Positions 38,884 through 61,446 of a DNA stretch of 64,000 nucleotides are shown in pieces. Where the stretch lies: IMG/VR virus record IMGVR_UViG_3300042894_006927, positions 1 through 64,000 of that record. One strand, written 5' to 3'. The position numbers were made by a program, and so were the translations under genes. Source of the DNA: a virus. Below the pieces are notes generated by a model, which was given only the letters and a program-made list of their open reading frames with translations, did not search any database and had not been told where the DNA came from. The stretch's first letter is position 1, and each line of letters begins with the position of its first letter.

Positions 38884-41316
38884 ATGCAACACCAAGATTC
38901 ATACATTGTCGTAAAGGAATTTACTGACAACGGAAAAAAAACGAGAGAGGTTATTGCAACGGGAGTAACCAAGCAAGGCTTTATTGATGCCTACACCGAA
39001 AAAGGTTGTGTAATGAGAGGGGGCGAAAACCCCCATTTTGAGGACATTTATTCGGGTATAATTTACAAGTTGGAAAAAGAATTTGAGCAAGGCGGTCAAA
39101 TTGATAGGGAAAGGGATATTCAGATTGCCAAAACAATTTTGATGCAAATGGGTGGCTCAAACCGACTGCAAATGTTTACGGGGGCATACAATTTTGTGGC
39201 AGTACCCTATGGGGTTTCATTTCGGATTAAAAACCGAAGCGTAAACTATGTGAAAATTGTGCTGAACGCAATGGACACTTACGATATTGAATTTGGGCGA
39301 ATTAGTGGGGTAAACTACAAGATTGTAAAAGAATTAAGCGGAATCTACAACGACCAATTAGTTGAAATTTTTACCCGTTATACGGGAATGGTTTTGCGTT
39401 TAAGAAAAGGCGGTGCAATTCAAGGGGAAGAAAATGCCGAAATGGTTATGAATCAAAACCTACAAATTCGCCACCACACCGAAGAATTAGAAGAAATCCT
39501 AAAATCGGGAAAGGAAGTTCCTGCTTGGGTTGTTTCAAAAGTTAGCAGGGCGGCAGATAGTATGTCAGATGCCACACACTACCTTGAAGGAACACCCGAT
39601 AAAATGGAAAGGGGTGGGAATACAAGAATTGTAGATATTTCAAAACTGAAAACTTATGTTTTGACTTATATTCCCGTTTTTGACATTAAACGGGCAATGC
39701 AAATAAAGCAAAAAGCGGTTTACGCAGAAAGCGAGGAAGATGCCATTGCCCAACTTCCAAGAACGGCAAAAGTAATTTCAATAAAAGTTACTTCGGGCGG
39801 TGGTCGTGGCATACCCCAACGACAAAGGGGGCGTGGAGAATCACAATCTCAAAAAATTCGGAAAGAAATAAAAGCGTTAAAGGAAACATTGCCCTTTTTG
39901 GAGGGTAAAGACAAAAAACAAATTGAAGATGAAATCAAAAACCTAAATGATACATTGGATGAGATGGATACATTGGATGAAATGAGGGCGGAAGGACAAT
40001 ATGCCGAAGGCGGAGGGGTTAATAAAATGGCAATGGGCGGTGAGGTTTCCAAACAATATGAAGACATACCTAATACAACATACCAACTAAAGATTAAAGT
40101 TTATTATGACAAGGGGGGTATGAACTATTATTCGGGGGGGACAAACAAAAGAGGTTATTACCTTTCAGTTACACCCGTTCAAATTGAAAGGCAAGGAAAT
40201 AATGTGATGATTGAATCATATACGGCATTTTCGGGCATAAAAAAGTTAATTTTAGAAGTAGAAAGACAAAGCCCAAAATCGGCTGAAAAAGCAAAAGAAC
40301 TTGCCGAATCTTCAATTTCCGAATTAAAGCAGTATGTTTTAAATCAAATGATTGAAAGAGGCGAAATACCACAAGCCCTTCCTATGCCCGAACCCGAACC
40401 AATGCCCGATGAAGATGAAATAAACCCCGAAGAAATTAGGGCTGAAATCGTAGCGTTAGAGCAAGTTTTAGAAGTGTTGGAAGGAGAGGATAGGCAATCA
40501 ATCCAAGAGGAAATCGAAATACTAAAACTTGCATTGGAAGGAATGGGCAATTATGCCAAAGATGGGGATAGCATAAAAAATTGGTACACAAGCACATACC
40601 CTTCCGATGATTTGGGCGAAGAATTAAACCCCGATGCTAAATTTAGTGGATTAGAAGAAAATTTGGCAGACATTTACACTTATTTGGGTGTTGCCGATTC
40701 GGTTGTTCGTGAAAGAGTTTTTGAAAGATATTCTGAAATTTTTAATAAGCCATACGAATATATTTACGACAAGTGGGTTAAATCGGAGAAATTTGCCAAA
40801 GGTGGCGGGATTGGTGAATTGCCCCCAAAAGGAGAATTAACCAATAAAGATAATTTTCTGCTCAAATATGAAAAAAAGGGTGGCGACTACGAATTTTACA
40901 TTTACAAACCCGAAACAAAAAAAGTTAGTGGATATAATCAAGTAAAGCATATTTGCGTAAATTCAGATTGCCCACACAAAATGACTTATGAGCAATTTTT
41001 AAATTACTTGTATGCAGAATTGTATTTAGATAATATGAAATATGCCAATGGCGGTGAAATTTTTGTATGCCCCGTTGGAACTGAAATCCAAACTTTGATT
41101 TTTGACAAATCAATGTTTAACCTTCGGGAAGCAAAAGCGTGGGCAAAGAAAAACAATTTTGAAAACGCTTATGTTGATGGCAAATTAAACACTTTGCGAA
41201 TACGACAAAAAGACCCCGCTATGTTTACCGAAGATGGATTTAGAACAATTCAATTAAGGCAAGGCGTTCAAGCAGTAATTGGTTGCCCGAAGCGTAAAAT
41301 CAGCAGAAAAAAATGA
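38884..41316 (+). CDS. mosaic protein / putative polyprotein of 8-9 small modules
   Basis: linkers FEQGG, LRKGG, MERGG, YAEGG, MAMGG, YAKDG (degenerate), FAKGG and YANGG separate unrelated 60-170 aa modules. Confidence 0.75.
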   Translation: MQHQDSYIVVKEFTDNGKKTREVIATGVTKQGFIDAYTEKGCVMRGGENPHFEDIYSGIIYKLEKEFEQGGQIDRERDIQIAKTILMQMGGSNRLQMFTGAYNFVAVPYGVSFRIKNRSVNYVKIVLNAMDTYDIEFGRISGVNYKIVKELSGIYNDQLVEIFTRYTGMVLRLRKGGAIQGEENAEMVMNQNLQIRHHTEELEEILKSGKEVPAWVVSKVSRAADSMSDATHYLEGTPDKMERGGNTRIVDISKLKTYVLTYIPVFDIKRAMQIKQKAVYAESEEDAIAQLPRTAKVISIKVTSGGGRGIPQRQRGRGESQSQKIRKEIKALKETLPFLEGKDKKQIEDEIKNLNDTLDEMDTLDEMRAEGQYAEGGGVNKMAMGGEVSKQYEDIPNTTYQLKIKVYYDKGGMNYYSGGTNKRGYYLSVTPVQIERQGNNVMIESYTAFSGIKKLILEVERQSPKSAEKAKELAESSISELKQYVLNQMIERGEIPQALPMPEPEPMPDEDEINPEEIRAEIVALEQVLEVLEGEDRQSIQEEIEILKLALEGMGNYAKDGDSIKNWYTSTYPSDDLGEELNPDAKFSGLEENLADIYTYLGVADSVVRERVFERYSEIFNKPYEYIYDKWVKSEKFAKGGGIGELPPKGELTNKDNFLLKYEKKGGDYEFYIYKPETKKVSGYNQVKHICVNSDCPHKMTYEQFLNYLYAELYLDNMKYANGGEIFVCPVGTEIQTLIFDKSMFNLREAKAWAKKNNFENAYVDGKLNTLRIRQKDPAMFTEDGFRTIQLRQGVQAVIGCPKRKISRKK

Positions 41317-41936
41317 AAAAAGAAAAATTCGCTGCGATTGCACTTGCCCTTACCGCAGGAGTTTTTTTGTTGGGAACAACGATTGGTTTTTTAATTCCAC
41401 AATTAAGGCGAAAGGTTGAAAAAAAATCATTGAAAAAACTTCTATTTGTAGGCGATAGTCAAACCAAGCCAAGTTACTCGTATGCCAACAAATTGTCTGC
41501 AAAATTGGGTTCGATGTTTTCTAAAATAGCGGAAAACGGGAAGCAAACCGAGTGGATGAAAAACCAAATTTTAAACACCGATATTTCGCCCTATGATGCT
41601 ATTTTTGTTTTTGGTGGTGGTAACGATATTTCAGCGAATAGGGTTGGTAAGGCACAACAAAACCTTAATGCCATTTACTCGTATGTCAAAAATAACGACA
41701 AGATTTTGGTTGCGGTTTCCCCACCATCAAAAGCCCTTTCAACGATTCACAATGAAATCCAAAAAAACCAAAATTTAGAATTGCGGGATTTTGTTTTAAA
41801 CCATCCCCTGCCCGATTTGAAAATTGATGCCACCGAAATCACAAACAAATCTTTTTTTAGTTCCGATAACATTCACCTAAATCCCGCAGGGCAGAATCAC
41901 CTTTCAAACATTATTTATTCACGATTAAAGGGTTGA
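41313..41936 (+). CDS. membrane-anchored SGNH/GDSL hydrolase
   Basis: N-terminal TM; FVGDS, G..T, GGGND, D.IH.N..G blocks. Confidence 0.88.
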   Translation: MKKEKFAAIALALTAGVFLLGTTIGFLIPQLRRKVEKKSLKKLLFVGDSQTKPSYSYANKLSAKLGSMFSKIAENGKQTEWMKNQILNTDISPYDAIFVFGGGNDISANRVGKAQQNLNAIYSYVKNNDKILVAVSPPSKALSTIHNEIQKNQNLELRDFVLNHPLPDLKIDATEITNKSFFSSDNIHLNPAGQNHLSNIIYSRLKG

Positions 41937-41938
41937 TT

Positions 41939-42652
41939 ATGTCAGCAATAACGGATTTTTTTGATGTTATTTTAAGGGGCGAAAGCAGAACCTATGACGA
42001 CCATAATTGGTATGTTTCGGGTGGAAGATTAAGGGGCTACATAAAAGGCAGAAACACAAACCCGTACCCTTTACTGAAAAAGGATTTGAGTAAATACTCA
42101 TTCGGAGAAATTAAAGCGTTCCAATCAAGGGATAGGGATGCCAATGGTCAATTATGGGCAACGGGCAGATACCAAATTATTCCTTCAACATTGCGGGGGG
42201 TTCAAAAACAAGTTGGATTGCCCGATTCAGCAATTTACAATTTAGAAAATCAAGATAAATTAGGGTTTGCTTTATTGGTTGAAAGGAGAAACACACGAAA
42301 TTACCTTTATGGGAAAGTTGCCGATACGCTTGAAAACCGACAATTAGCGGCACTTGATGTTGCAAAAGTTTGGTCAAGCGTGGGAGTTCCTTACCGAGTT
42401 TTTGGTGGAAGGGGAAGGTATGTTGAAAAAGATGAATCTTACTACAAAGGCGGTGGCGACAAGGCGAGTGTTCCAAGTATAAATGCCCAACAAGCATTAC
42501 AAAAACTGCGAAATTCATTACTAAACAATCAAGTTCCCCAAGCACCGAAAATAAAGCGAGATTTTACTTGGGCTTATTACATTTCGGGTGGGTTGCTTTT
42601 AAGTTCAGCAATAGCATTTTATTTTATCGCTAAACGCAGGAAAAATAAATGA
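41939..42652 (+). CDS. lysozyme-like muramidase/transglycosylase with C-terminal membrane anchor
   Basis: I..GES, ATGRYQIIPSTL, ENQD, WSS (lambda R / GH104-like); C-terminal TM plus KRRK. Confidence 0.75.
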   Translation: MSAITDFFDVILRGESRTYDDHNWYVSGGRLRGYIKGRNTNPYPLLKKDLSKYSFGEIKAFQSRDRDANGQLWATGRYQIIPSTLRGVQKQVGLPDSAIYNLENQDKLGFALLVERRNTRNYLYGKVADTLENRQLAALDVAKVWSSVGVPYRVFGGRGRYVEKDESYYKGGGDKASVPSINAQQALQKLRNSLLNNQVPQAPKIKRDFTWAYYISGGLLLSSAIAFYFIAKRRKNK

Positions 42653-42703: not shown

Positions 42704-43093
42704 ATGGCAAAACTACCTCACATTTACTTTCTTGAGCAACTTGATTTGACCGAACAAGACATTCTTTCGGAGTTCAAAAATTATCGTTTAGAAAACGCAA
42801 AAGCCAAAAAGTTTGTAGAATCAAAAGATTTGACAAACGCTTTAAGTGTTTCAAACCGAATTATTGAAAAGGTTATTCCAATGCTTGACGAAGAAGATTT
42901 TTCTGATGAAGAAATTGAAAAAGCCAAGCAAGATGCCCTTTCGCAATTTTCAACAAAACAAAGTTCAAATGGCGAAGCCAATGATAACTCCGAAAATTCT
43001 GATTCAAAAAATGATTTAGGAATTTTGGGTTGGGTTTTGGGCGGTGCTGCCCTACTTGGCGGTGCTTTTTTCTTATTCAAGCGTAAAAAATAA
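42704..43093 (+). CDS. tail-anchored membrane protein
   Basis: C-terminal hydrophobic helix plus KRKK; TATATTTG element just upstream. Confidence 0.7.
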   Translation: MAKLPHIYFLEQLDLTEQDILSEFKNYRLENAKAKKFVESKDLTNALSVSNRIIEKVIPMLDEEDFSDEEIEKAKQDALSQFSTKQSSNGEANDNSENSDSKNDLGILGWVLGGAALLGGAFFLFKRKK

Positions 43094-43668
43094 TGCTCGT
43101 TTGTAATTATAGGAGTTTTGAAGGTCTGCCCCTGCCGAATGTTAGAACAATATCGGGTGGGTTAGGTCGGTATGGACTTGACATAATTACAATGGTGGCA
43201 CGAAATGAAACGGGAACGGCTCAACAAGTTGATTTCTTTTCCCGTAGCAATCCCGCAGGGGTTCGTGTCAGTAACGATGCAATTTCTATGAGTGGGCTTA
43301 TTACCCGTACCCAAGCAAGTCCTCTTGTTATTACAAAAGGGAAATTCTTTGCAAGTGGCGAAAATTCTATTGAGCAACAAAATCAACCTTTGCTGATTTA
43401 CACAAAAACCGCATCGGGGGCTTACGACCAAATTCAAATGAATCCGAGTGCGTACCAATCTTCTCTGCGAACAAGTCAATACCCTATTGACATTCCATTG
43501 AAAGCAATTATTGATAGCCAAAGTAGTTTCTCAACAACCATTTTGCCTAACACTACAATCCGTATAGTGTTAAAGAGTTTCCAACCGCTTAATAAGTCGA
43601 AGGATTTACGGGCATTTCGTGAATTTATGGGAATAAAATGGCAGAAACAAAAGAAATTTGGATTTTAG
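43093..43668 (+). CDS. putative capsid protein 2 (single jelly-roll-like; paralog of 46073-46828)
   Basis: colinear with 46073: (I/Y)T.V..N.T...Q.V; (T/S)Q.SP; Q; A.G...Q....P.A(Y/F).SSL......ID(I/L). Confidence 0.55.
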   Translation: MLVCNYRSFEGLPLPNVRTISGGLGRYGLDIITMVARNETGTAQQVDFFSRSNPAGVRVSNDAISMSGLITRTQASPLVITKGKFFASGENSIEQQNQPLLIYTKTASGAYDQIQMNPSAYQSSLRTSQYPIDIPLKAIIDSQSSFSTTILPNTTIRIVLKSFQPLNKSKDLRAFREFMGIKWQKQKKFGF

Positions 43669-44051
43669 AAACCGCAAAAGCATACGAAGAAAAACTTGCC
43701 ACACGCATCCGCAAGAATACTTCATTGAAAAGCCGTTATCCCAAAATGCTAATTAAAGCAAGGATTGACTTTGTTTTTTTTGTCGTTTCCTTATATTTCG
43801 GGCTTGACAAAAATTGCTTTTATGAAAAGAAACGGCAGGGCGGACTTCCATCAAATTTTTCAGAAATTCGGGGGTTTGCATTTGCATTGCTAAAGCAACG
43901 ATACAACTACTCAAACGAAATGATTTCATTACACACAAAATTTTCACAAAATTGGATTGCAAGGTGCATCTACAAGTTTTCGATTTCGGAAAATTCCGAG
44001 TTTCAAAAATGCGAACTGATTTCAAAACAAATAGCCAATTCTAACTTATGA
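43638..44051 (+). CDS. DnaA domain IV / TrpR-like HTH protein
   Basis: V..YFGL.......KR......R..A..L......S.E.I pattern. Confidence 0.5.
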   Translation: MAETKEIWILETAKAYEEKLATRIRKNTSLKSRYPKMLIKARIDFVFFVVSLYFGLDKNCFYEKKRQGGLPSNFSEIRGFAFALLKQRYNYSNEMISLHTKFSQNWIARCIYKFSISENSEFQKCELISKQIANSNL

Positions 44052-44944
44052 GAGGTCGTAAAAAAATAATTGTTGACAAAGCGGAAGATGCCACAATTCT
44101 TTCAGAACCCGAATTGATGAAGCCAATGGGGGCGACACAATCGCCTTTGCTTGACCCAATTTCTACCGAAGCATCGGGAGAAGGTTCGGGAAAAGCAAAA
44201 ATCCTTCAAAATTTAGGGGGGGCTACTTCTGACGACACCTTTGATGAAAACGATGATAATTTTGAAAGTAACCAACCCGAACCGAAAGTTAGAAGCCAAA
44301 AAAAGCAATCGGCAAGTTTTAATTCTGAAAGCGTAATTTCCGACAATAATTTTCCCGAACCACCCGAATCAAATTTTGATGAACCCGATGAATTTGATGA
44401 AGAATATGAAGAAGGGTCTAACGACCTTCCCGAAGGATATTTAGACAAGGAAATTCCAAAACAAGCGAAATTCATTACCGACCTTGTTACTAATTTGCTT
44501 GAAACATTGATTTTGCAGAAATACGCTATTGATGTTGATAGCGTGAGGACTTCCTTAATGGAAATTTCCGATATGCAACAACAAGTTCCGAATGTAATCA
44601 AAGGTCTTAATGACTACAATATGGGATTTAAAAATGCCATAGAGTTTACCAAAGATGAAAAGAAACTTATTGTTACGGGATTGGTAAACATTCTGAAAAA
44701 ATACCCTGCAATTTCAGACAAACTAACGGGGGAAGCACAATTAGGTTTGGCTATTTTAACGATTGGATTGACTAAATTAGGCGTTTTAAAACAAATGAGA
44801 GATAAGGGAACGGAGATTTTAACCAACATAAATGCCACTTTAAATCAGTATCGTGAATTTTACAAAGCCAAAACCGAACAAATGCGTAATCAACAAGCCC
44901 AAGCAGAGCAAAGCGGAAACGCAAGGGCAGAACAATATGGATAA
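44048..44944 (+). CDS. acidic protein with a hydrophobic helix, upstream of the packaging ATPase
   Basis: disordered acidic N-terminal half, LGLAILTIGL segment, coiled-coil tail. Confidence 0.65.
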   Translation: MRGRKKIIVDKAEDATILSEPELMKPMGATQSPLLDPISTEASGEGSGKAKILQNLGGATSDDTFDENDDNFESNQPEPKVRSQKKQSASFNSESVISDNNFPEPPESNFDEPDEFDEEYEEGSNDLPEGYLDKEIPKQAKFITDLVTNLLETLILQKYAIDVDSVRTSLMEISDMQQQVPNVIKGLNDYNMGFKNAIEFTKDEKKLIVTGLVNILKKYPAISDKLTGEAQLGLAILTIGLTKLGVLKQMRDKGTEILTNINATLNQYREFYKAKTEQMRNQQAQAEQSGNARAEQYG

Positions 44945-44954: not shown

Positions 44955-45869
44955 ATGGCGATACGGAAAAGCAAACCCACAAATGAGCCGAGTAAAAGGA
45001 AATCGGATAGCCGAAGCAACGGCATATCGGTTATTACGGGTATGCAGGGCGTAGGAAAATCATTTAATCTGAACAGCCGAGTAAGGCAGTACGCCCAATT
45101 TCATAAACGCCCCGTAATTGTCTATGATGTAAACGATGAATATGCTGATTATGAAATTGTGCGTTGGTCTGACATTAAAAACCTAAAAGGCGGTATTGTT
45201 CGCAGAGTATTACCCTATAAGCAGAAGCGTAGCGGGAGTAAGGTAAGGGAAATCAAAGCGTTTGACTTGGAAGATTTAAGAAATGGTTTTTTTTATTTGC
45301 TTGAAAACTTTAAAAACGGGTGTTTAGTATTGGATGATTTTAATTCCTACACTATTTCGACACGAAAGACAAACATCCTTTCTACTCTGACAAGGGCAAG
45401 GCATCACGGGTTGGATATAATTATTGTTTTGCAAGAACTTGGAAAAGTAACCAAAGACCTTTTTGCGAACTCGTCTTATTTCGTAATGCACCGACAAAAT
45501 ACTTCGCTTGACATTGAAAGAAAAAAAATAACAAACTTTCCTTTGTTTAAGATTGCAGAGAACATTGTAAATGCTCAATTTCATTTGGTTGAGAAAATGA
45601 ATGAAATGGGCAAGTTTTCATTGGAAAGCGAATACAAAATGTATCGTAGTTTTTATGTTGAAATTGATGTAAAGCGAAATAAAATCTACGGGTGTACGAG
45701 CAGAGAAATGTTCCGAGAAGCAATTAAGAAATACCTTAAAACTTCGGACAAATACCGAGAGGTTTATGAATTTATGGCTGAAAATGATTTGAGAAAGACG
45801 AACAAAGAGGATTTGGATAGGGCTATAAATGAGGTTTCGGGCAGGTATATGGGCTTTTTTGCAGGTTAA
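44955..45869 (+). CDS. FtsK-HerA superfamily (A32/P9-like) genome-packaging ATPase
   Basis: ITGMQGVGKS Walker A, VIVYD, CLVLDD Walker B, RARHHGLDIIIVLQ (R-finger/H and Q sensor); no nuclease domain. Confidence 0.8.
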   Translation: MAIRKSKPTNEPSKRKSDSRSNGISVITGMQGVGKSFNLNSRVRQYAQFHKRPVIVYDVNDEYADYEIVRWSDIKNLKGGIVRRVLPYKQKRSGSKVREIKAFDLEDLRNGFFYLLENFKNGCLVLDDFNSYTISTRKTNILSTLTRARHHGLDIIIVLQELGKVTKDLFANSSYFVMHRQNTSLDIERKKITNFPLFKIAENIVNAQFHLVEKMNEMGKFSLESEYKMYRSFYVEIDVKRNKIYGCTSREMFREAIKKYLKTSDKYREVYEFMAENDLRKTNKEDLDRAINEVSGRYMGFFAG

Positions 45870-46072
45870 TAATTGGGTTTTTAAGTTATTTATTGTGTAT
45901 TTGCAAGAAACTTAAAATCAGCAAGTTGCAATATGAATGGGAATGTTATATCATTTAAAATTCCTTTTTAATTCTTTTTCTTAATAATTGAAATGTTTAT
46001 TCTACGGAATTGAGTGTAAATTTGACTGATAAATCATTTAAACACTCACTTGCGAGGTAAAACAAATCAATT

Positions 46073-46856: not shown

Positions 46857-46893
46857 AAAGGGGGCGGGGTACTTTTGCCCCGCCTTTTTTTTT
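46857..46893 (+). terminator. rho-independent terminator after the putative MCP
   Basis: GGCGGGGT...GCCCCGCC stem followed by T9. Confidence 0.88.
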
Positions 46894-53001: not shown

Positions 53002-53006
53002 AAAAA

Positions 53007-53480: not shown

Positions 53481-53514
53481 TTGTATTAAAAATTAAAAAT
53501 TTAATTTAAGAATT

Positions 53515-54042: not shown

Positions 54043-54055
54043 AAACAATTAAATA

Positions 54056-54286
54056 ATGAAAAACAAAGTTTATGCTTTCGCTAATTTCCGCAATGCGGAA
54101 GGCGAATTATCGGGGCGGCTTCAAATGCCCCAAGCATCCATTGTCGGTACTGCCGTTGGTGCAATCGCAGGACACTTTATTGGCAGAAATGCTAAATCGG
54201 GTATGGCGAAAAAATTAAATGCCTACAATGGGGCTGCTTATGGTCTTTTAATCGGTGCTTTAATCGAAGGGTATCGGTCAGTTTAA
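54056..54286 (+). CDS. small glycine-zipper membrane protein
   Basis: FRNAEG near the N-terminus; GxxxGxxxG helices. Confidence 0.7.
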   Translation: MKNKVYAFANFRNAEGELSGRLQMPQASIVGTAVGAIAGHFIGRNAKSGMAKKLNAYNGAAYGLLIGALIEGYRSV

Positions 54287-54305
54287 TTAAAAAAAAGAAA
54301 AAGAA

Positions 54306-54770
54306 ATGGGAACTATTTTAGGTTTATCCTCTCGTATGGTCAGCATTGACCCGAATGAACCCTCATTCAACGACCAAATAAATGCCACTATTGCTCAAGG
54401 AGTTGATAACAATGCTTCTTATTTTCCTTCGGGGGCAAGACAAGCGTTTGCGGAACAAACTCAAACGAAAATCGGTGCTTTAACAAGCGACATTTTGCCC
54501 GTTGGGGAGTATATGATTCCAAATGCTTATTTGTTAGCCGATGGCGATGTTAATGCCGATGCTAATGCCGATGCGGGTGGAATTGAAGTAGGTGCTTCTT
54601 ATGTTGTACCTTCAACTGCAATGTTGTTAGGCAATGTGCTTGGTGGAATCTTGGCTTATCAAATGACCGCAAACCGCAAAGGGCGTGTTTGGTGGACTAT
54701 TGGTGGAGTAATTGCGGGTGGCATTGCTACCTCTCTTGCTTACAATGTAGGTCGGGGCTTTAGCCGATGA
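54306..54770 (+). CDS. membrane protein with two C-terminal TM helices
   Basis: LLGNVLGGILAY and WWTIGGVIAGGIA. Confidence 0.7.
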   Translation: MGTILGLSSRMVSIDPNEPSFNDQINATIAQGVDNNASYFPSGARQAFAEQTQTKIGALTSDILPVGEYMIPNAYLLADGDVNADANADAGGIEVGASYVVPSTAMLLGNVLGGILAYQMTANRKGRVWWTIGGVIAGGIATSLAYNVGRGFSR

Positions 54771-55189
54771 AAAAAGGCGTAGTGGTTGGAATTGGCTCGG
54801 TTTTGCTTGTCGGAATTGCGATAGGCGGGTATTTTCTATGGAGAAATACTCGCAAATCCGAAACTGATAGCGGAAAAGCCAATGGTGGAGATACGGGTGG
54901 GGGAATTGATGTTACCCCGCCTACTATTCCTTCCAACGAAACTTTACCCCCGCCAACGCAGGGATGCCCAAGTAAATCATATACCCGCCAACGCAATGAT
55001 GCCTTTCCCTTGAAATGGGGTTCAGAAGGTGCAAATGTAGGTAGGTTGCAGAGGGCGTTGAATATGAAATTGGGCTACAATTTAAGTGTTGACAATAAGT
55101 TCGGTTGTTTGACCGAATCTGCCCTTCGCCAAGCGTTAAGAAAAAATGAAATTTCGCAGACCGAATTAGAATCACTTGAAAATCAATGA
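54767..55189 (+). CDS. membrane-anchored peptidoglycan-binding (PG_binding_1-like) protein
   Basis: N-terminal TM; FPLKWGSEG.NV..LQ.ALN....L.VD.KFG..T..A. Confidence 0.8.
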   Translation: MKKGVVVGIGSVLLVGIAIGGYFLWRNTRKSETDSGKANGGDTGGGIDVTPPTIPSNETLPPPTQGCPSKSYTRQRNDAFPLKWGSEGANVGRLQRALNMKLGYNLSVDNKFGCLTESALRQALRKNEISQTELESLENQ

Positions 55190-55581
55190 AAACATCGTCA
55201 ATTTATATTTTAGCGGGAACACTTGCTTTAGGCGGTGTTGCAATTCTTGTTTTGGCGTTGCGTAAACGCCCCGAAGAAACCGAATCCCCTATTGATGTTA
55301 CTCCCCCAACTCAAAATGGCGGTGGCGGTGGCGGTACTCGGCAATTTTCGTGTATGTACGGAAACGAATTTCCTTTGCAGTTTGGCTCTTGCGGTTCAAA
55401 TGTCGAAAAATGGCAAACATATTTGAACTCCAAAAGGGGCGAAAATTTAGCCGTTGATGGAAAGTTTGGTGCTTTAACCGAATCCGCTACAAAACGGCAT
55501 CCCGCCTTTGGAAATTTATCTACTTTCAATCAAGGAAAAGTAAGCGAGGTTGATTTCAATATGGCGACTTTTCAAGGTTAA
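55186..55581 (+). CDS. membrane-anchored peptidoglycan-binding protein
   Basis: N-terminal TM; FPLQFGSCGSNV..WQ.YLN....LAVDGKFG..T..A. Confidence 0.8.
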   Translation: MKTSSIYILAGTLALGGVAILVLALRKRPEETESPIDVTPPTQNGGGGGGTRQFSCMYGNEFPLQFGSCGSNVEKWQTYLNSKRGENLAVDGKFGALTESATKRHPAFGNLSTFNQGKVSEVDFNMATFQG

Positions 55582-55597
55582 TGCAATCTAAAATGAA

Positions 55598-56008
55598 ATG
55601 GCAAAAGCATCGTTTCTACCCAAAAAAAATGATTTACCCGATGTTTGGGTAAATTGGTTTGATAACCTTCAAGGAGAGGTAGGGATAAATAATGCCCGAT
55701 TTCTTTGGACTAAATGGTGGAACGAAATTAAGCCAACTTCAAGCAACACAATAAACCTTCGCAATCAAATGGAAGCGAGGGGAATTGTAATTGAACCCGA
55801 ATCTGCTTTAGGAAAAATCGGTGATATTGGCTCTGATGTGTTTTCGGGCATTGGAACTGCCTTTCGTGGCGTTGGAACGCTAATTACTATTTCGGTGGTT
55901 GGCGGGATTGCTATTATTGGACTTGTTCTTTACAATTTCACAAAAGATGAAAGTGGTCGTGCTGAACTGAAAAATTTAGCATCAAAAATTGCAACAAAAG
56001 GGATGTAA
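55598..56008 (+). CDS. membrane protein
   Basis: Trp-rich N-terminus, C-terminal TM. Confidence 0.65.
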   Translation: MAKASFLPKKNDLPDVWVNWFDNLQGEVGINNARFLWTKWWNEIKPTSSNTINLRNQMEARGIVIEPESALGKIGDIGSDVFSGIGTAFRGVGTLITISVVGGIAIIGLVLYNFTKDESGRAELKNLASKIATKGM

Positions 56009-56009
56009 A

Positions 56010-56486
56010 ATGAACAAAAAGCAACTCATTTTTATTGGTGCAACTGCGACTGCGATTGGGTTTTTCTTTATTGGAAGAAGCATTTATCGAAAAATTCGGC
56101 TTGAAGATATTTTGAAGCAGATGCAAACGGCATCAACGGGTGATATTTCTACGGATTTAGGATTAGTTTTTAGCGGTCAGCCATACCTTAACCAACTTGC
56201 AGGGAAAACATTGATTTTATTGCAGGATTCGGTTGCGAGAAAATATGCAAATGACTTGAAAGGATATATTTGCCAAACCTATGTTTGTAACACAAACGAG
56301 GGTGGAATTTATGGGGTGTTTCAGCGTATTTCAAATAAAGCCCAAGTAGCCCAAGTTTCAAAGTGGTACAAAGCGTTATTCGGAAGGGATTTACTTGCTG
56401 ATTTAAACGCTGATTTAAACGATACGGAATTAGAAAAGGTAAGAACAATAATTGCTTCAAAACCCGATTACGAAATTGCACAATGA
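56010..56486 (+). CDS. membrane-anchored protein with an annexin-like repeat
   Basis: N-terminal TM; TNEGGIYGVF....NKAQ..QV...Y...FGRDL..DL resembles the annexin repeat consensus. Confidence 0.55.
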   Translation: MNKKQLIFIGATATAIGFFFIGRSIYRKIRLEDILKQMQTASTGDISTDLGLVFSGQPYLNQLAGKTLILLQDSVARKYANDLKGYICQTYVCNTNEGGIYGVFQRISNKAQVAQVSKWYKALFGRDLLADLNADLNDTELEKVRTIIASKPDYEIAQ

Positions 56487-57007
56487 ATAGAAAATTAGCA
56501 ATAGGATTAGCCGTTGGTGGCGGTACTATAATTGTTGTAGGACTTGCTACCTATTTTGGCGTTAAACTTGCTTCAAAGCCCGAAAATCAACAAGGCGGTG
56601 GCGGTGGTGAAAATGGCGGTGGAACAAGACCCCCAAGCGAAGATGAATCCGTGCCACAAACGGGAACACAAGAGGCAAAAATGTCTTTTCCCCTTGCGAT
56701 TGGTGATAGGGGCGTAGGCGTTGCTTACCTTCAAAAATCCCTGCAATGTTTAGGCAAGTATTCGGGAAGCATTGATGGAAAATTCGGTATTGAAACATAC
56801 AAGGCGATTAGAAGTTATTTTACTTTCCAATGGTTTAATTGTACTTTTCATTACGAGTGCAAATTGTCTGAAAAACAATGGAAGGAAATTGTCCAACAAG
56901 CAAGGCAAAAATGTGGGTTGGCAACTTTCTCTTTACCCGATTCAATTTGGGAAGAATATACCCAAGCCCATACTGATTTTTGGAACAAAAAACGCCAAGA
57001 AAAATGA
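56483..57007 (+). CDS. membrane-anchored peptidoglycan-binding protein
   Basis: N-terminal TM; FPLAIGDRG.GV..LQ..L..LG.....IDGKFG.ET..AIR.F. Confidence 0.8.
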   Translation: MNRKLAIGLAVGGGTIIVVGLATYFGVKLASKPENQQGGGGGENGGGTRPPSEDESVPQTGTQEAKMSFPLAIGDRGVGVAYLQKSLQCLGKYSGSIDGKFGIETYKAIRSYFTFQWFNCTFHYECKLSEKQWKEIVQQARQKCGLATFSLPDSIWEEYTQAHTDFWNKKRQEK

Positions 57008-57465
57008 TTAAGCGTGGGTGGATAATTGGTGGCGTAATTGCGGGAATTTTAGCCGTTCCAATTACCTATTTTTTGGTTCAGTACAAAAAGTTAATGGACT
57101 ACGAAATTAACCCCGACACAATTACCCGAATTTCAAAAGAAGGCAGAAGGTACAAGTATAGGGTTGTTTTTAATTTTGAAAACAAATCTTCGCTTGGTTA
57201 TACGATTGAGCAACAAAGTTATGAGGTGTTTTTAGGTAATTTGAAAATCGGTGAAGGAAGTTACAAAGAGAATGTGGAAATAAAGCCAAAATCAGTAAGC
57301 AAATTGCCTATGGTTATGGAGTTTGTTTTACCTACAAACGCCCAAGCAATAGGTTATTTGCTTGAATTGTTTTCAAGCGGAAAAGTTTTGATAAATGTAA
57401 AATGGCAAGTATCTTTAATGGGCTTAAAAACGAACATTGAAAAACAAATGGAGTTTAAAATCTAA
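57004..57465 (+). CDS. membrane-anchored LEA_2/WHy-like beta-sandwich protein
   Basis: N-terminal TM; F.FEN......TI....Y.V.L....IG.G......I.P. Confidence 0.6.
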   Translation: MIKRGWIIGGVIAGILAVPITYFLVQYKKLMDYEINPDTITRISKEGRRYKYRVVFNFENKSSLGYTIEQQSYEVFLGNLKIGEGSYKENVEIKPKSVSKLPMVMEFVLPTNAQAIGYLLELFSSGKVLINVKWQVSLMGLKTNIEKQMEFKI

Positions 57466-57468
57466 ATT

Positions 57469-57963
57469 ATGTCGAAAAATTCAAAAATCTTATTGGCGGT
57501 AATTGTTTCGGGAATTATTGGCTTTTTTGTTGGGAAAAAAAGTAAGCAATCAAACTTTTCTAACTTTGAAAAAGGCGGTGGAATGTTTCCTTGCCCCGAA
57601 CCGACAAAAAATTTGGAATTAAATACCCGTAACCGAAACAAGGCAATTAAAGCAGATTGGATTCAATATGGGCCTTTAAACCTTTCAGATTCAGCGTATT
57701 ACAATCGACTTGCAAAGCATTGGAATACGAGTGTTGGGGTTGCAAAAAAATCTAATTGCGGAAATTGTGCTGCTTTTGATGTTTCCCCAAGAATGAAAGG
57801 TTGTATGTCAGTAGGCGAATTGCAAGATAAAGATGGTGCTTTTGGATATTGTTGGATGCACAAATTTAAGTGCCATTCTGCCCGTACTTGTTACACTTGG
57901 GCGAAGGGCGGTGCAATTACAACTGACAAAGTATCTTATGGTTGGCAAGAAAGAAATCAATAA
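57469..57963 (+). CDS. membrane-anchored Cys-rich (HiPIP-like spacing) protein
   Basis: N-terminal TM, FSNFEKGG, then CGNCAAF...GYC....FKC....TC..W. Confidence 0.65.
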   Translation: MSKNSKILLAVIVSGIIGFFVGKKSKQSNFSNFEKGGGMFPCPEPTKNLELNTRNRNKAIKADWIQYGPLNLSDSAYYNRLAKHWNTSVGVAKKSNCGNCAAFDVSPRMKGCMSVGELQDKDGAFGYCWMHKFKCHSARTCYTWAKGGAITTDKVSYGWQERNQ

Positions 57964-57999
57964 AAATCAATTTAAAAATCAATTTTAAAATCAAATCCT

Positions 58000-58251
58000 A
58001 TGGAAAACAAGGAACTTATCAATTACGGGGGTGGAATTGTTGGTGGCATTTTAGGAAATGTTATCAATGACCGATTCACCAAATTTGGAATGGCAGGGCG
58101 ACTTGGACTAATTGCCGTTGGTGTTTTTGGCGGTTATTTTTTAACCAAAACTTTGCAGGACAAAGGTGGTTTTAGAAATGCCGATGGCGGTTGCGGTTGC
58201 GGTTGCGGTGGAAAATGTGGTGGCGGTTGCGGTTGCGGTTGTGATGATTAA
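58000..58251 (+). CDS. small membrane protein with a (Cys-Gly)n tail
   Basis: two TMs, FRNADG, then GCGCGCGGKCGGGCGCGCDD. Confidence 0.7.
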   Translation: MENKELINYGGGIVGGILGNVINDRFTKFGMAGRLGLIAVGVFGGYFLTKTLQDKGGFRNADGGCGCGCGGKCGGGCGCGCDD

Positions 58252-58285: not shown

Positions 58286-58474
58286 ATGTTCGGATTAGAT
58301 AAAATCATTGATTCTCGGATTCAAGATTTGATTCACAAACTTTCAGAAGAAATGGGCGAACCGATTTCTGAAATAAAAGTGCTGTTAAAACTTGACGAGC
58401 AAACGGGAAAAACAATCGCCTACTCGGTTGTAAATGGAAAAGCGGGTAGGAGAATTTCATTAAAAGAGGTTTAA
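58286..58474 (+). CDS. hypothetical protein
   Basis: 62-aa ORF within the operon. Confidence 0.55.
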   Translation: MFGLDKIIDSRIQDLIHKLSEEMGEPISEIKVLLKLDEQTGKTIAYSVVNGKAGRRISLKEV

Positions 58475-58475
58475 A

Positions 58476-58748
58476 ATGGCACAATCAAGCGGTATAAATC
58501 TTCGGTCTTGGTCAAACAATGTGGTGCAAGTTCAGAACTTTACCTACTTGTCAATTTACAACATAGGGGCATCTGACTTGGTGCTTAAATTTGGTTTGGG
58601 CGATAGTGCCACTAATTCCAATGTTGTACCTGCAAACGGGGGCGTTTGGACTTCCCCGCAAATTGTGGCAAAAATTGAAAGCATTTACATATTAAATTCA
58701 TCGGGTTCGGCTTACAATATAATGACCGATGGGCAAATAGTTTCCTAA
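58476..58748 (+). CDS. small all-beta protein, possible vertex/penton protein
   Basis: alternating beta pattern; lies upstream of the spike-like genes. Confidence 0.4.
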   Translation: MAQSSGINLRSWSNNVVQVQNFTYLSIYNIGASDLVLKFGLGDSATNSNVVPANGGVWTSPQIVAKIESIYILNSSGSAYNIMTDGQIVS

Positions 58749-59083
58749 TGTCTAAAAAAATAGTTCTGCCATTTACTGAAAATGAATTATTCGTAACTGC
58801 GGATAAATCCAAGATTTTCATTGAGGGAACGCCAATAAACATTGACTTCTGCTATTGCAGGGTTGAGTTTTTGGTACGGCATACGGGAAGGGAAATGGAT
58901 ATTGCCCTTTTTACTTTTTTCGATAAATCAGCATACGAGAAAAGCCCAAACACGCCTTTGGTAACAAATCTCAACAAATTTATGGTTCGGGTTGAGTTGG
59001 ATGATTCGCAACAATTATGCGTTCAAACTGCCTTGCATTTTATGAAGGACAAATTGATTCAAGATGGCTACAAAGTGGAATAA
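58748..59083 (+). CDS. hypothetical protein
   Basis: 111-aa ORF, TAATG-coupled. Confidence 0.6.
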   Translation: MSKKIVLPFTENELFVTADKSKIFIEGTPINIDFCYCRVEFLVRHTGREMDIALFTFFDKSAYEKSPNTPLVTNLNKFMVRVELDDSQQLCVQTALHFMKDKLIQDGYKVE

Positions 59084-59085
59084 AA

Positions 59086-59604
59086 ATGGGGCAAGTATCA
59101 AAAGCGGCTTATGGTTGGAATCCTGCACCAAAAAGAGATTTTAGTGGCGGTGCTTATGGCGTAATTTATTCAACACAAAACCAACCTGCATTAGCCCCAA
59201 ATACCCCGCAAATTATTACTCTGAACACCCTAAATGGTTCAAGCGGGATTTCTTTAGACAACAACAAAATTGTTATTGCCACACCCGCAACCTATCGAAT
59301 GTCAGTAACGATTTTAACTCAAAATGCCGACAACAAAGAACACGATATTACCTTTTGGCTAAAATTTTTGGGTAATGATTACCCAAATTCGGCACATACA
59401 ACAACACTTCCTGCACGGAAAAGCACGGGAACGCCAAGTTTTCAGTTGTTTACATACGATTTCATTGGAACTTCTATTAACCCAAACGACTATGTTGAGT
59501 TATTTTGGAAAGCAGAATCGGTAGCCGTATCTTTGAAGTATACGATTGGGGTTGGTGTGCCTAATGCACCTTCCGTAAGCGTCAACATTAATAGAGTTGC
59601 TTAA
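59086..59604 (+). CDS. putative spike protein with a C1q/TNF-like head
   Basis: YG......Q...I...T.....GI.L....I.......Y......FWL......NS...NDYVELFW. Confidence 0.55.
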   Translation: MGQVSKAAYGWNPAPKRDFSGGAYGVIYSTQNQPALAPNTPQIITLNTLNGSSGISLDNNKIVIATPATYRMSVTILTQNADNKEHDITFWLKFLGNDYPNSAHTTTLPARKSTGTPSFQLFTYDFIGTSINPNDYVELFWKAESVAVSLKYTIGVGVPNAPSVSVNINRVA

Positions 59605-59605
59605 T

Positions 59606-60376
59606 ATGGGCAAAGTTTCAGCATTTGGATATGGTTTTCTACCCCCCGTAAGTGGGGGCGGTGGCACTACAACCCTACAAATAGGAGATACAATCGTAAA
59701 TAATGCGGTTGCAGGTGGAGTTTTATTTGTTGCTTTTGCGGCAGGTCAAAATCGCCTTTCAATGAATCCCAATAATTTCTTTTGGGATGAATCTAATTTA
59801 AGATTGGGTTTAGGAACGAATACGCCTTCGCAAAAACTACACGCATTTGGCGGTGCTTCTGATGTAGGTATTTTGACCGATGCAAATTCGGGATTACAAA
59901 ACAAGGCATACATTTTTGGTACGGGTGGCGATAAGCGATGGGATTTGAATGTTTTTGGAAACAATACGGGGGCTAATGTTGGCGATGATTTTTCCATACG
60001 CAGATACAACGATGCAGGGGCGTTAATTGACACGCCTATTTCCATTGTTCGTTCTACGGGTGTTGCCACAATCAACGGCAAAACAATGGCTGACAAACTT
60101 GATGTTACAACGGCATCTACGGGTGCAAACATTTTGTTTGTCGTTCCTCAAATTTACAATAGCGTTGCTTCCCCAAGAACGGGAAATATAACCTCTGATT
60201 TAACGGGTGCAAACATTGGAATTGTGCAAAAAATTTATCACCAACAAGTAGGCGTTCCGAGTTTTCCCGTAGGTTGGGTTTTGGTTGGCACGGGTAGTTA
60301 TGTAGGTGGAACGCTAAATATCATTTATGCTGAATGGGTTTCGGGAACAAGGGTTGAGTATTGGATTGTTCAATAA
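59606..60376 (+). CDS. putative fibre/spike protein
   Basis: FFWD..N.RLGLGT.TP..KLH fibre repeat; RW......DF.I.RY.D.G motif. Confidence 0.65.
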   Translation: MGKVSAFGYGFLPPVSGGGGTTTLQIGDTIVNNAVAGGVLFVAFAAGQNRLSMNPNNFFWDESNLRLGLGTNTPSQKLHAFGGASDVGILTDANSGLQNKAYIFGTGGDKRWDLNVFGNNTGANVGDDFSIRRYNDAGALIDTPISIVRSTGVATINGKTMADKLDVTTASTGANILFVVPQIYNSVASPRTGNITSDLTGANIGIVQKIYHQQVGVPSFPVGWVLVGTGSYVGGTLNIIYAEWVSGTRVEYWIVQ

Positions 60377-60382
60377 AAAAAT

Positions 60383-61198
60383 ATGTCAAATCGCTATTCT
60401 ACCATATTGGCTTTAGGAGGTTCGATTGAGCCTTTTTTTCTTGACACCTACCCCAATGCGTCAGTAGCCTATTCCCTTAGATTACTAAGCAGCACCTATG
60501 CTGGTTCTGCAATTAGGGTAAGAAGGTCAAGCGATAATACTGAGCAGAACATTGGCTTTAGTGCAGGAGTGTTGGATACTGCCGCCTTACTAAGTTTTTG
60601 CGGTGCGGGAAATGGTTTTGTTACTACATTCTACGACCAAAGCGGTAACGCAAAGAACAGCGTACAAACTTCCGCAGGTTCACAACCAAGAATTGTTTTG
60701 TCGGGGGTATTAGAAACATTAAATTCAAAGCCTACAATAAATTACATTTCAGGTACGGCAACGGGTACACCTTTACAAAATGTAACTGCTCAAAGTATAT
60801 TTAATGTAGGTCAAGTAGTTACATATAACCAACTTCAATCACTTATTTCTTTCGATAGTGTATCAGGTTTTGGCCCGTGGATTCGTTCTATATCTCCTAA
60901 TTATTGGAGAACACCAAGTACGAGTGCAACAGATTCCTTTGATTTCACACATTTAAGTAATATGTACTTTAACGGCAACCTACATATAACAGCAAACAAC
61001 TTTTTAAACCCACACATTTTATCGTCTTTTGGGTTATCAGCGATTACTAAAAAGTTTGGCATAAGCGACATTACTTTTCTTGGAAGATGGTTTTTAGGTA
61101 AAATGTCCGAGTGTATCGTATATCCAACAAATCAACAAAGCGGATTTAAGTCAGGAATCGAATCAAACATGAGTTCTTATTATTCAATTCCATTATGA
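60383..61198 (+). CDS. ConA-like lectin / arabinofuranosidase-B-like receptor-binding protein
   Basis: AYSLR.L...Y.G.AIRVRRSSDN.E..IGF...FVT..YDQSGN...QPRI...G.MSE.I.Y. Confidence 0.7.
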   Translation: MSNRYSTILALGGSIEPFFLDTYPNASVAYSLRLLSSTYAGSAIRVRRSSDNTEQNIGFSAGVLDTAALLSFCGAGNGFVTTFYDQSGNAKNSVQTSAGSQPRIVLSGVLETLNSKPTINYISGTATGTPLQNVTAQSIFNVGQVVTYNQLQSLISFDSVSGFGPWIRSISPNYWRTPSTSATDSFDFTHLSNMYFNGNLHITANNFLNPHILSSFGLSAITKKFGISDITFLGRWFLGKMSECIVYPTNQQSGFKSGIESNMSSYYSIPL

Positions 61199-61446
61199 CC
61201 ATATTAGGCTATAAATACTTAACTGAGGCTGATGCTCAAAAGGCAAGGAAAGATTGCTCTGATTATTATGGCATTCCTGTTTCTCCTGAAGATACAACCC
61301 GATATTGGGTAGATTATTATTGTGCAATGTTAGATGAGCCAAAGTTTTGGTTTATACTATTTAATGATAGTTTAACTATTGTATTAGGAGAACCTATCGA
61401 ATTTGAAGTTATTCAACCAACCCCATTTGAAGATGCGACCAATTAA
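61195..61446 (+). CDS. small acidic phage protein
   Basis: 83-aa ORF with ATGA coupling to the lectin gene. Confidence 0.7.
   Translation: MTILGYKYLTEADAQKARKDCSDYYGIPVSPEDTTRYWVDYYCAMLDEPKFWFILFNDSLTIVLGEPIEFEVIQPTPFEDATN

Follow-up and report, generated by a model that had tools for sequence, protein, structure and literature searches.

A candidate morphogenesis module of a large tailless membrane-containing phage, probably of Bacteroidota, from lake water

The region from 41.3 to 61.4 kb of the viral DNA considered in this study is probably a morphogenesis module, that of a dsDNA phage with an icosahedral particle, an internal membrane and no tail, whose host would be a freshwater member of the Bacteroidota. 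Such a phage would build its coat from two single-jelly-roll proteins, in the manner of P23-77 and SH1, although its genome measures 80 kb or more. The observations that carry this reading are the family membership of an ATPase, the fold and paralogy of two jelly-roll proteins, the enrichment of transmembrane (TM) segments, the order of the genes, and the absence of tailed-phage hallmarks from 79.8 kb of sequence. A search of the literature found no published description of such a virus.

The window, that is, the whole stretch analyzed, comprises bases 1-64000 of the 79,789-b IMG/VR virus contig IMGVR_UViG_3300042894_006927, which comes from an uncultured virus of lake water, a mesophilic freshwater habitat. 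An earlier note on this DNA had placed the genome above 64 kb, as the contig bears out, and had called the genomes of known relatives much smaller than the window, which holds for PRD1 and PM2 but not for SSIP-1 (43.8 kb), smaller only. The full contig is a fragment: terminal repeats are lacking, and on the right the assembly broke off inside a high-depth variable repeat. IMG/VR classes its topology as linear, and CheckV estimates its completeness at 46%, a figure that may be unreliable for a virus without relatives in the CheckV reference set. The block is not chimeric, since independent assemblies (L003, L006 and a Logan contig of 19,425 b) bridge its junctions with the neighboring DNA.

The block holds 36 genes, all in one direction (+), and every element that the earlier note had listed for positions 41313-61446 was found there (Table 1). 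It lies in the usual place for structural genes, between cargo-type polyvalent proteins, which occupy about 21 kb (19.9-41.3 kb) immediately upstream, and a lysis cassette downstream. Elsewhere the virus encodes, as had been claimed, its own primase (DnaG), helicases (DnaB, UvrD and one of the Strawberry-notch type) and glycosylation genes (three GT2 glycosyltransferases and an epimerase). The closest relatives of the primase are in Porphyromonas, Cellulophaga and Flavobacterium phages (about 35% identity), and the host is probably a member of the Bacteroidota.

Table 1. Features of the 41.3-61.4 kb block and of the lysis cassette just outside it. Coordinates are those of the window; genes are named in the text by their first base.
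Feature	Coordinates	Strand	Details
Membrane-anchored SGNH/GDSL hydrolase	41313..41936	+	Lipase_GDSL_2 6.6e-9; N-terminal TM, residues 6-24
Lysozyme/transglycosylase-like protein	41933..42652	+	phrog_90 'endolysin' 7.4e-12; C-terminal hydrophobic segment 211-228
Small jelly-roll paralog, candidate second major capsid protein	43093..43668	+	191 aa, pI 9.95; paralogy to 46073
Two genes between small jelly-roll gene and ATPase	43638..44944	+	137 aa with weak TM segment; acidic 298 aa (pI 4.6) with disordered N-terminus
P-loop ATPase, FtsK-HerA superfamily	44955..45869	+	304 aa; phrog_2666, Pfam Zot, motifs
Non-coding leader of 46073	45870..46072	+	203 b, longest gap in block
Large jelly-roll protein, candidate major capsid protein	46073..46828	+	251 aa; AF2 fold, conservation
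Intrinsic terminator directly 3' of 46073	46861..46890	+	21-base G+C-rich stem-loop 46861-46881 GGGGCGGGGTACTTTTGCCCC, then T run
Five membrane proteins	46909..50822	+	173 and 162 aa (C-terminal TM); 532 aa; 326 and 100 aa (C-terminal TM)
Zincin-like metallopeptidase candidate	50995..51792	+	HELSH at residue 184; Pfam PhageMetallopep 3.2e-3, below cut-off
16 mostly small proteins	51795..58251	+	Gly-zipper membrane proteins, 3 TM-anchored PG_binding_1, AKSPAK-repeat protein
Soluble beta-rich proteins upstream of lysis genes	58286..61446	+	59597 spike-like, 60383 lectin-like
Lysis cassette, just outside block	61587..63961	+	endolysin, DUF6549-like, holin-like, two small TM proteins

The product of 44955 carries a Walker A motif (GMQGVGKS, residues 29-36), a Walker B motif (CLVLDD, 123-128) and TRARHHGLDIIIVLQ at residues 146-160. 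Its best viral family is phrog_2666 (5.7e-13), which includes PRD1 P9 (1.2e-67), PM2 P9 (2.9e-53) and P23-77 ORF13 (2.9e-40), all matching the same region of the profile, and not a family of conjugation ATPases, a grouping set beforehand as a refutation of the reading. Direct alignment by hhalign gave E-values of 4.6e-4 with P23-77 ORF13, 1.3e-4 with PM2 and 0.025 with PRD1, that with ORF13 spanning Walker A, Walker B and the 'LTxxR...hhhhxQ' core. The best Pfam match is Zot (PF05707, 2.1e-6), with DUF87 weak; phrog_197 and phrog_1675 (Zot, M13 pI) are weak secondary matches (4e-5 and 1.2e-3). Hydrophobicity scans found no TM segment in the protein, unlike pI/Zot. These comparisons support its assignment, from sequence, as a predicted genome-packaging ATPase of the PRD1 P9/PM2 P9/P23-77 ORF13 type. 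The earlier description of the ATPase as A32/P9-type stands in its P9 part, but the Pfam Pox_A32 model does not match.

The capsid-like beta proteins of the earlier note are 46073 and 43093. The AF2 model of 46073 is a single eight-stranded jelly roll (core residues about 50-205, pLDDT mostly 75-97), whose top fold matches (Z 5.4-6.8, VIA) include STIV A223, PBCV-1, PR772 P31, FLiP MCP, phiCjT23 and PRD1 P3, vertical jelly rolls of the PRD1/P23-77-type lineage. The matches reach only Z 5-7, and non-capsid jelly rolls match as well (for example nucleoplasmin, Ena fibres and tailed-phage cement and decoration proteins, with KHP40 and Pam1). The modeled fold by itself is no proof of a capsid role. 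The family of 46073 comprises 240 representative clusters and has no sequence relative in Pfam, PHROG or PDB. Its paralog 43093 (BLASTP 1e-6; aligned by hhalign with 134 columns of the family profile at E 1e-12 and a probability of 97.8%) has orthologs of its own (P0126, P0104 and P0166), and the two genes flank the ATPase gene. Neither a double-jelly-roll capsid candidate nor a penton protein was found.

In relatives at 83-85% DNA identity, the most conserved proteins of the block are 46073 (95.6% amino acid identity, the top value), 43093 (92-93%), the ATPase (90-94%) and the zincin-like 50995 (94-95%), a candidate maturation protease. The two proteins encoded at 43638..44944, possibly assembly or scaffold factors, match no Pfam or PHROG family and are 85-90% conserved in L003 and L006. 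A separate leader precedes the gene 46073, and after it comes a strong terminator, whose hairpin, read on the - strand, is the site with the most G-C pairs (7) in a scan of 41-61 kb. Positions 46017-46024 of the leader read TAAATTTG, which resembles the Bacteroidota -7 motif. This is compatible with a promoter but not evidence for one, because the motif shows no enrichment across the window.

Membrane proteins are concentrated in the block. Under a strict requirement for 18 uncharged hydrophobic residues, 17 of its 36 genes encode a TM segment, as compared to 0 of the 34 genes from 6.5 to 41.3 kb, and the count rises to about 20-22 when a Kyte-Doolittle scan and Gly-zipper proteins are added, in keeping with the figure of about 20 given earlier. 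Among the five directly after 46073, the 532-aa protein consists of a helical coiled coil and two Gly-rich TM segments, and a fold search with its model gave no match. The 162-aa protein is similar in layout to P23-77 VP19, weakly so in sequence (phmmer 2.6e-6 but composition-adjusted BLASTP 0.2). The run of 16 proteins, conserved and colinear in L003, includes the very basic AKSPAK-repeat protein 53007 (pI 11.2) and presumably supplies internal-membrane, DNA-delivery and DNA-condensing components. It also includes 54767, 55186 and 56483, each with an N-terminal TM segment and PG_binding_1 (only 56483 passes the Pfam cut-off), which together with 41313 and 41933, the latter a candidate virion-associated wall enzyme, account for the anchored cell-wall enzymes reported before. 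The spike-like genes reported with them rest on weaker evidence: 59597 matches phrog_29706 'tail spike' (1.3e-5), and 60383 matches phrog_10356 'virion structural protein' (7.6e-17) and has a lectin-like ArabFuran-catal domain (3.1e-9). The products of 58286..61446 are candidate vertex or receptor-binding proteins. In the lysis cassette, the endolysin combines PG_binding_1 with Amidase_2, and the holin-like protein is multi-TM, with two or three hydrophobic segments.

Searches of the full contig in six frames, for TerL with three Pfam families, for portal and for HK97 capsid, found none of them, and the roughly 100 ORFs scanned gave no PHROG or Pfam family for terminase, portal, HK97 capsid or tail. 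A terminase/portal/HK97 module elsewhere on the contig was the other refutation set in advance; both tests came out in favor of the jelly-roll membrane-phage reading, which gains further from the fold and its paralog. Since the genome is incomplete, a head-tail module could nonetheless lie off the contig, and the DNA could be part of a large tailed phage whose ATPase, jelly-roll and membrane proteins serve, for example, in decoration or cement, in a membrane-associated replication or egress compartment, or in superinfection exclusion. I consider this unlikely, despite the low CheckV figure, the lack of termini, the cement proteins among the fold matches and the one weak 'tail spike' match. The block occupies the usual structural site, some 80 kb lack any tailed-phage hallmark, and the ATPase belongs to the family that packages DNA in tailless membrane phages. 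Furthermore, an ATPase-jelly-roll pair followed by about 20 TM proteins is the layout of PRD1, PM2 and P23-77, and it is kept in distant relatives: L007 preserves the order ATPase, jelly-roll gene, TM proteins with a major capsid protein candidate 52% identical, and the distant IMG/VR virus G001 has the same order, with matches to the ATPase profile at 4.5e-36 and to the jelly-roll profile at 3.9e-28, followed by 10 or more TM proteins.

A little less probable again is a tailless membrane virion of another architecture, for example with jelly rolls that lie horizontally, as in Sulfolobus polyhedral virus 1 (SPV1), or pleomorphic or enveloped. Sequence does not reveal how a jelly roll is oriented, the weaker fold matches of 46073 include the SPV1 capsid protein (Z 4.7), neither jelly-roll protein has detectable sequence similarity to P23-77 VP16 or VP17, and the genome is far larger than that of any known vertical single-jelly-roll virus. 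Against this, the P9-type ATPase and its adjacency to the candidate capsid gene are hallmarks of the PRD1/P23-77 lineage, to which the top fold matches also belong, and SPV1 is not known to have a P9-type packaging ATPase. It is very improbable that the block is a conjugative or inovirus-like secretion module of a non-viral element, exporting DNA without a capsid by a Zot-like ATPase and TM proteins: Zot is the best Pfam match and polyvalent proteins occur on conjugative elements too, but the ATPase lacks a TM domain and scores much better with the P9 family than with Zot, none of the families reported by the scans is a VirB4, coupling-protein or relaxase family, conservation extends to the jelly-roll pair, and an amidase-holin lysis cassette follows the block.

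If the block does serve to build a tailless membrane phage, 46073 (large) and 43093 (small) would form the capsid lattice, in parallel with the capsid protein pair VP16 and VP17 of P23-77 and the SH1-type viruses, and the approximately 20 small TM proteins would sit in a host-derived lipid vesicle beneath the shell. The ATPase would drive the genome through a special vertex into the preformed, membrane-lined procapsid. The polyvalent proteins of 19.9-41.3 kb would probably be packaged as cargo. Adsorption and DNA delivery would fall to the lectin- or spike-like proteins and to the membrane-anchored proteins that bind or degrade the cell wall, and the downstream amidase and holin would release the progeny.

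Of the known systems, inovirus pI/Zot is an assembly ATPase from the P-loop superfamily to which the ATPase of this virus also belongs. However, pI/Zot has a C-terminal TM domain, the match here to the P9 family is far better than to the Zot-type families, and the genome is large dsDNA with a lysis cassette. PRD1 (Tectiviridae) and PM2 (Corticoviridae), of the kingdom Bamfordvirae, have the same packaging-ATPase family and the same order of ATPase, capsid gene, small membrane proteins and lysis genes, and P3 and P31 of PRD1/PR772 are among the top fold matches of 46073. However, they have one double-jelly-roll capsid protein rather than two separate single-jelly-roll paralogs, and genomes of 10-15 kb. 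PRD1 replication is protein-primed, whereas the present virus has genes for DnaG and DnaB.

SSIP-1 is likewise a tailless membrane-containing phage with a Bacteroidota-related host, reported to have two capsid protein types (PMC6356626). Its genome of 43,788 b is the largest of this type checked; that of the present virus is at least 1.8 times larger (about twofold). No SSIP-1 ORF has detectable protein-level similarity to this virus, phrog_2666 has no match in SSIP-1, and SSIP-1 comes from a hypersaline habitat rather than lake water.

P23-77 and the other Halopanivirales (Matshushitaviridae, Sphaerolipoviridae and Simuloviridae; kingdom Helvetiavirae) differ in having genomes of 16-31 kb, as compared to at least 79.8 kb. 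The present virus, from a mesophilic freshwater habitat, has its own DnaG, DnaB, UvrD, glycosyltransferases and polyvalent proteins, and P23-77 itself is a Thermus phage. Their small coat gene adjoins the large one, whereas in this virus the ATPase gene has the small paralog on its upstream side. They nevertheless share with this virus a packaging ATPase from one PHROG family with an alignable core, small and large single-jelly-roll coat-type proteins encoded beside it, then small membrane proteins together with wall enzymes and lysis genes, and, in the case of P23-77, possibly a VP19-like membrane protein.

The 36 genes on the + strand between 41.3 and 61.4 kb probably come from a tailless phage, at least 80 kb in genome size, whose capsid is lined by a membrane and built from two proteins with one jelly roll each. 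The elements that an earlier note had taken for a morphogenesis module (a packaging ATPase, beta proteins, about 20 transmembrane (TM) proteins and anchored wall enzymes) are present, in a block of 96% coding density whose features are listed in the table along with those of its surroundings.

Features of the block and of the rest of the contig. Single numbers are gene starts; L002 is the handle for the right part of the contig.
Feature	Position	Remarks
Auxiliary genes	6572-19933; L002:13801-18787	three GT2 glycosyltransferases, NAD-dependent epimerase, TRM-type methyltransferase
Large polyvalent-type proteins	19963-41316	~21 kb directly upstream of the block; ART-PolyVal + GNAT, 1601-aa Strawberry-notch-type helicase, MoxR-like AAA_5 ATPase, DUF7192, LPD23
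Small jelly-roll protein	43093	candidate capsid protein
Packaging ATPase	44955-45869	304 aa; Walker A GMQGVGKS, residues 29-36; Walker B CLVLDD, residues 123-128
Large jelly-roll protein	46073	candidate capsid protein
162-aa protein	47440-47928	two genes past the candidate capsid gene; Gly-rich segment, Ala/Gln coiled coil, C-terminal TM segment
532-aa protein	47928-49526	largest protein of the block; predicted helical, ~110-residue coiled coil, two Gly-rich TM segments
Zincin-like protein	50995	candidate protease acting on polyvalent proteins
Basic protein	53007-53480	157 aa, pI 11.2, Lys + Arg 29%; AKSPAK repeats like histone H1/SPKK tails
Gly-zipper-like membrane protein	58000-58251	83 aa; tail is the Cys-Gly repeat GGCGCGCGGKCGGGCGCGCDD
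GDSL hydrolase	block	N-terminal anchor
Lysozyme-like protein	block	phrog_90
PG_binding_1 proteins (three)	block	each N-terminally anchored
Spike-like proteins	block	phrog_29706 (1.3e-5), phrog_10356 (7.6e-17), lectin-like domain
Lysis cassette	61.6-64 kb	after the block; PG_binding_1 + Amidase_2 endolysin, holin-like protein
Right-end element	79141-79789 (L002:19141-19789)	last ~650 b of the contig

Both Walker motifs of the ATPase are invariant among 11 homologs, as is a motif past Walker B, TRARHHGLDIIIVLQ (an Arg followed by a hydrophobic strand whose last residue is Q), which lines up with LTGGRENGHNVVFVTQ of P23-77 ORF13 and LTQGRSKKIPMIILSQ of PRD1 P9. In Pfam the protein matches Zot (2.1e-6) and, weakly, HerA/DUF87, and its top match in PHROGs is phrog_2666 (5.7e-13), a family labeled "terminase large subunit". 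Used in six-frame searches, phrog_2666 found PRD1 P9 (1.2e-67), PM2 P9 (2.9e-53) and P23-77 ORF13 (2.9e-40). The same region of the profile (304-553) is matched by the ATPase of the window and by those of PRD1, PM2 and P23-77, and the family therefore consists of packaging ATPases of tailless membrane phages, the terminase label being a misnomer. By hhalign, the 11-sequence ATPase profile aligned with P23-77 ORF13 over a stretch of 148 columns that begins with Walker A and extends through the Q motif (E = 4.6e-4), with PM2 P9 in the Walker A/DVxDEY region (1.3e-4) and with PRD1 P9 at the Arg..Q motif (0.025).

The ATPase had earlier been called A32/P9-type. The P9 half of that name stands, but the A32 half does not in its narrow sense, since a six-frame search with Pfam Pox_A32 (PF04665) turned up nothing at E <= 10; the model derives largely from the A32 proteins of eukaryotic viruses, so its silence counts only against the narrow sense. 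Grouping with conjugation ATPases had also been a concern, and no conjugation family appeared among the family matches. Sequence searches of PDB returned just P-loop-level or noise matches, and neither tblastn against INPHARED nor a scan of IMG/VR with the ATPase found anything. An identity with pI/Zot of the Inoviridae type was considered and rejected: those proteins have a C-terminal TM domain and belong to small ssDNA genomes, whereas the ATPase here has no TM segment and is encoded on a 79.8-kb contig with genes of dsDNA-phage type and a lysis cassette. The ATPase gene sits between the two jelly-roll genes, an adjacency kept in two relatives at 83-85% DNA identity (L003 and L006), in a more remote relative (L007) and in a distant IMG/VR virus (G001).

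The block could instead be a fragment of a tailed phage, which I consider unlikely. Six-frame searches of the whole contig gave no match at E <= 1 to Terminase_6N, TerL_ATPase or Terminase_3, nor to Phage_portal and Phage_capsid (two Pfam models only), and when virtually all ORFs, large unknowns included, were compared with Pfam and PHROGs, families of head, portal, tape-measure or tail proteins were not among the matches. Terminase PHROGs were likewise absent from the contig, except for the mislabeled phrog_2666. What had earlier been said of the window, that terminase, portal and HK97 genes are not recognizable, thus extends to all 79.8 kb. The contig carries replication genes, cargo, a block in structural position and lysis genes, a set that looks functionally complete without those of a tailed phage. 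In favor of a tailed phage it may be said that the contig is a fragment, which makes this an argument from absence.

The model of the large jelly-roll protein (46073), drawn from 16 homologs (mean pLDDT 66; core residues 50-205 mostly 75-97), contains one eight-stranded jelly roll between a disordered Gly-rich N-arm and a disordered C-tail, in keeping with the capsid-like beta protein of the earlier note. Its fold matches are moderate (Z 5.4-6.8). Among them are STIV A223, PBCV-1, PR772 P31, the FLiP MCP, phiCjT23, the faustovirus MCP and PRD1 P3, and also jelly rolls of a generic kind, for example those of nucleoplasmin, Ena fibres and the coats of plant viruses. A Foldseek search of BFVD gave generic jelly-roll matches only. 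Since the matches are moderate and mixed with generic jelly rolls, the fold is established and kinship is not. P23-77 VP16 and VP17 are absent from the VIA fold-match lists, an absence that does not exclude them. The small protein (43093) is a paralog of the large one (BLASTP 1e-6; profile probability 97.8%, E = 1e-12), and the two are the only members of their family on the whole contig. A complex prediction for the pair scored 0.01, which counts neither for nor against pairing.

At E <= 1e-3, the family comprises 240 clusters among 1.84 billion representatives, some of them orthologs of the small paralog. Contigs of 74, 70 and 42 kb carry homologs (P0007, P0033 and P0029). A profile of 97 members had no credible match among Pfam, PHROG or PDB sequences, hhalign against capsid proteins of the VP16/VP17 type aligned no more than 12-25 columns, with E-values of 0.06 and 0.11, and tblastn of INPHARED with 46073 matched nothing. 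Scans of IMG/VR gave one distant locus with alignment A11 and none with alignments A1, A4, A8 and A10 or with P0033. In one subfamily within alignment A10, which holds metagenomic members of the family, the N-terminus is extended by an acidic stretch and the C-terminus ends in a tail rich in Arg (RRxRR...LRRRR); such a tail suggests contact with DNA or membrane.

Between L003 and L006 and the contig, 46073 is the most conserved protein of the block (95.6% amino acid identity), followed by the zincin-like protein (94-95%), 43093 (92-93%) and the ATPase (90-94%). Its gene stands by itself, preceded by the longest non-coding gap in the block and followed by a strong terminator; the motif TAnnTTTG occurs 94 times in the window against an expectation of 95, which is no enrichment. 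The order of ATPase, jelly-roll gene and TM proteins, which is that of ATPase, capsid gene and TM proteins in PRD1, PM2 and P23-77, is kept in L007, where the large protein is 52% identical, and the G001 locus has matches to the ATPase profile (4.5e-36) and the jelly-roll profile (3.9e-28), followed by at least 10 TM proteins. The top conservation, the solitary placement before a strong terminator and the shared gene order all support a capsid role for 46073. I regard 46073 and 43093 as candidate capsid proteins, whose jelly rolls would stand vertically.

By a strict criterion, 17 of the 36 genes in the block encode TM proteins, as against 0 of 34 on the + strand upstream, and the count rises to about 20-22 with a Kyte-Doolittle scan and Gly-zipper matches. 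This disparity suggests an internal lipid membrane. The spike-like genes reported earlier do have counterparts, but through weaker matches. A membrane-containing virion of some other architecture I judge quite improbable.

Several other proteins deserve mention. The 162-aa protein is laid out like P23-77 VP19 (L011:9761-10024, in the P23-77 sequence), with a phmmer value of 2.6e-6 and a composition-adjusted BLASTP value of just 0.2; the likeness may be compositional. The model of the 532-aa protein has no fold match, and one may speculate that it is a capsid-size ruler or remodels membranes. The basic protein aligns with its counterpart in L003 in the C-terminal half alone (residues 89-157, 57.97% amino acid identity) and is possibly a DNA-condensing virion protein. 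Searches of the contig for an adenain (C5) or Ulp1 (C48) protease gave no match.

That the genome would exceed 64 kb is borne out by the contig (79,789 b), but the termini that were sought did not appear, there being no direct or inverted terminal repeats. IMG/VR classes the record as "linear", and CheckV estimates its completeness at 46%. In four lake metagenomes the right-end element is covered 10-18 times as deeply as the remainder, and many alternative joints, skipping 59-168 b, are found there. It is a repeat or hypervariable element common to many genomes, and the assembly probably broke because of it. Because of the high depth and the many variant joints, the right end is an assembly break rather than a genome terminus, and with terminal repeats lacking as well, the genome size is at least 79.8 kb. 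The block is joined to its neighbors in contigs from other samples (L003 and L006), and a Logan contig of 19,425 b, in two runs, covers about 53-72.5 kb; since these independent contigs bridge the block and its neighbors, it is not an assembly chimera. A non-viral element, against which stand the P9-type ATPase and the lysis cassette, is hardly credible.

The window, bases 1-64000 of the contig, has a G+C content of 32-42% and no tRNA genes, and virtually all of its genes past 6.5 kb are encoded on the + strand. The replication genes in the rest of the contig encode DnaG, DnaB, UvrD, an exonuclease and RNase H, the DnaB operon including, besides a DEDDh exonuclease, a short ORF that resembles a polymerase (phrog_14632, 1.9e-12). 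Together with the auxiliary genes, these are not what a tailless phage usually carries. The closest relatives of the primase, at about 35% identity, are in phages of Porphyromonas, Cellulophaga and Flavobacterium, and the host may well belong to the Bacteroidota. Scans of 185,579 GTDB species genomes found no relative, hence neither a prophage nor a link to a host. In 20 metagenome runs from lakes or other freshwater (19 studies, 2016-2025), 72-96% of the words sampled from the last 10 kb on the right (69.8-79.8 kb) were present.

A broader reading has, in my estimation, slightly better than even chances: that the contig represents a lineage of jelly-roll viruses of prokaryotes (Varidnaviria-like, with two single jelly rolls) that is widespread in freshwater, with genomes of at least 80 kb, at least twice that of the largest cultured tailless membrane phage, with replication and glycosylation genes of their own and about 20 kb of polyvalent effectors packaged in a membrane-lined capsid. 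It includes, at the same level of confidence, a capsid family of 240 clusters that escapes Pfam, PHROGs, sequence searches of PDB, INPHARED and almost the whole of IMG/VR. If so, packaging by jelly-roll capsid and P9 ATPase scales to large genomes in prokaryotes, virus-detection tools would gain a large and hitherto unannotatable capsid family, and an abundant predator of lake bacteria has been overlooked. The block also offers a test of polyvalent effector delivery from membrane-lined capsids.

The genomes of the tailless membrane phages known to date measure 10-44 kb, and the other jelly-roll viruses known to have large genomes all infect eukaryotes; literature searches turned up no description of tailless phages so large. 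The largest such phage checked, SSIP-1 (43.8 kb), has no detectable protein in common with the contig. Bamfordvirae have a double-jelly-roll capsid protein. Of the proteins modeled here, 46073 has a single jelly roll and the 532-aa neighbor is helical; the jelly-roll family has two members on the contig. The closest working analogues are viruses of the P23-77/SH1 type, which combine an internal membrane and a P9-type ATPase with two capsid proteins of one jelly roll each, although their capsid proteins have no sequence link to the jelly-roll proteins here. Two-capsid viruses of the Helvetiavirae type have genomes of about 16-31 kb, and the genome considered here, at 79.8 kb or more, is at least 2.5-5 times larger.
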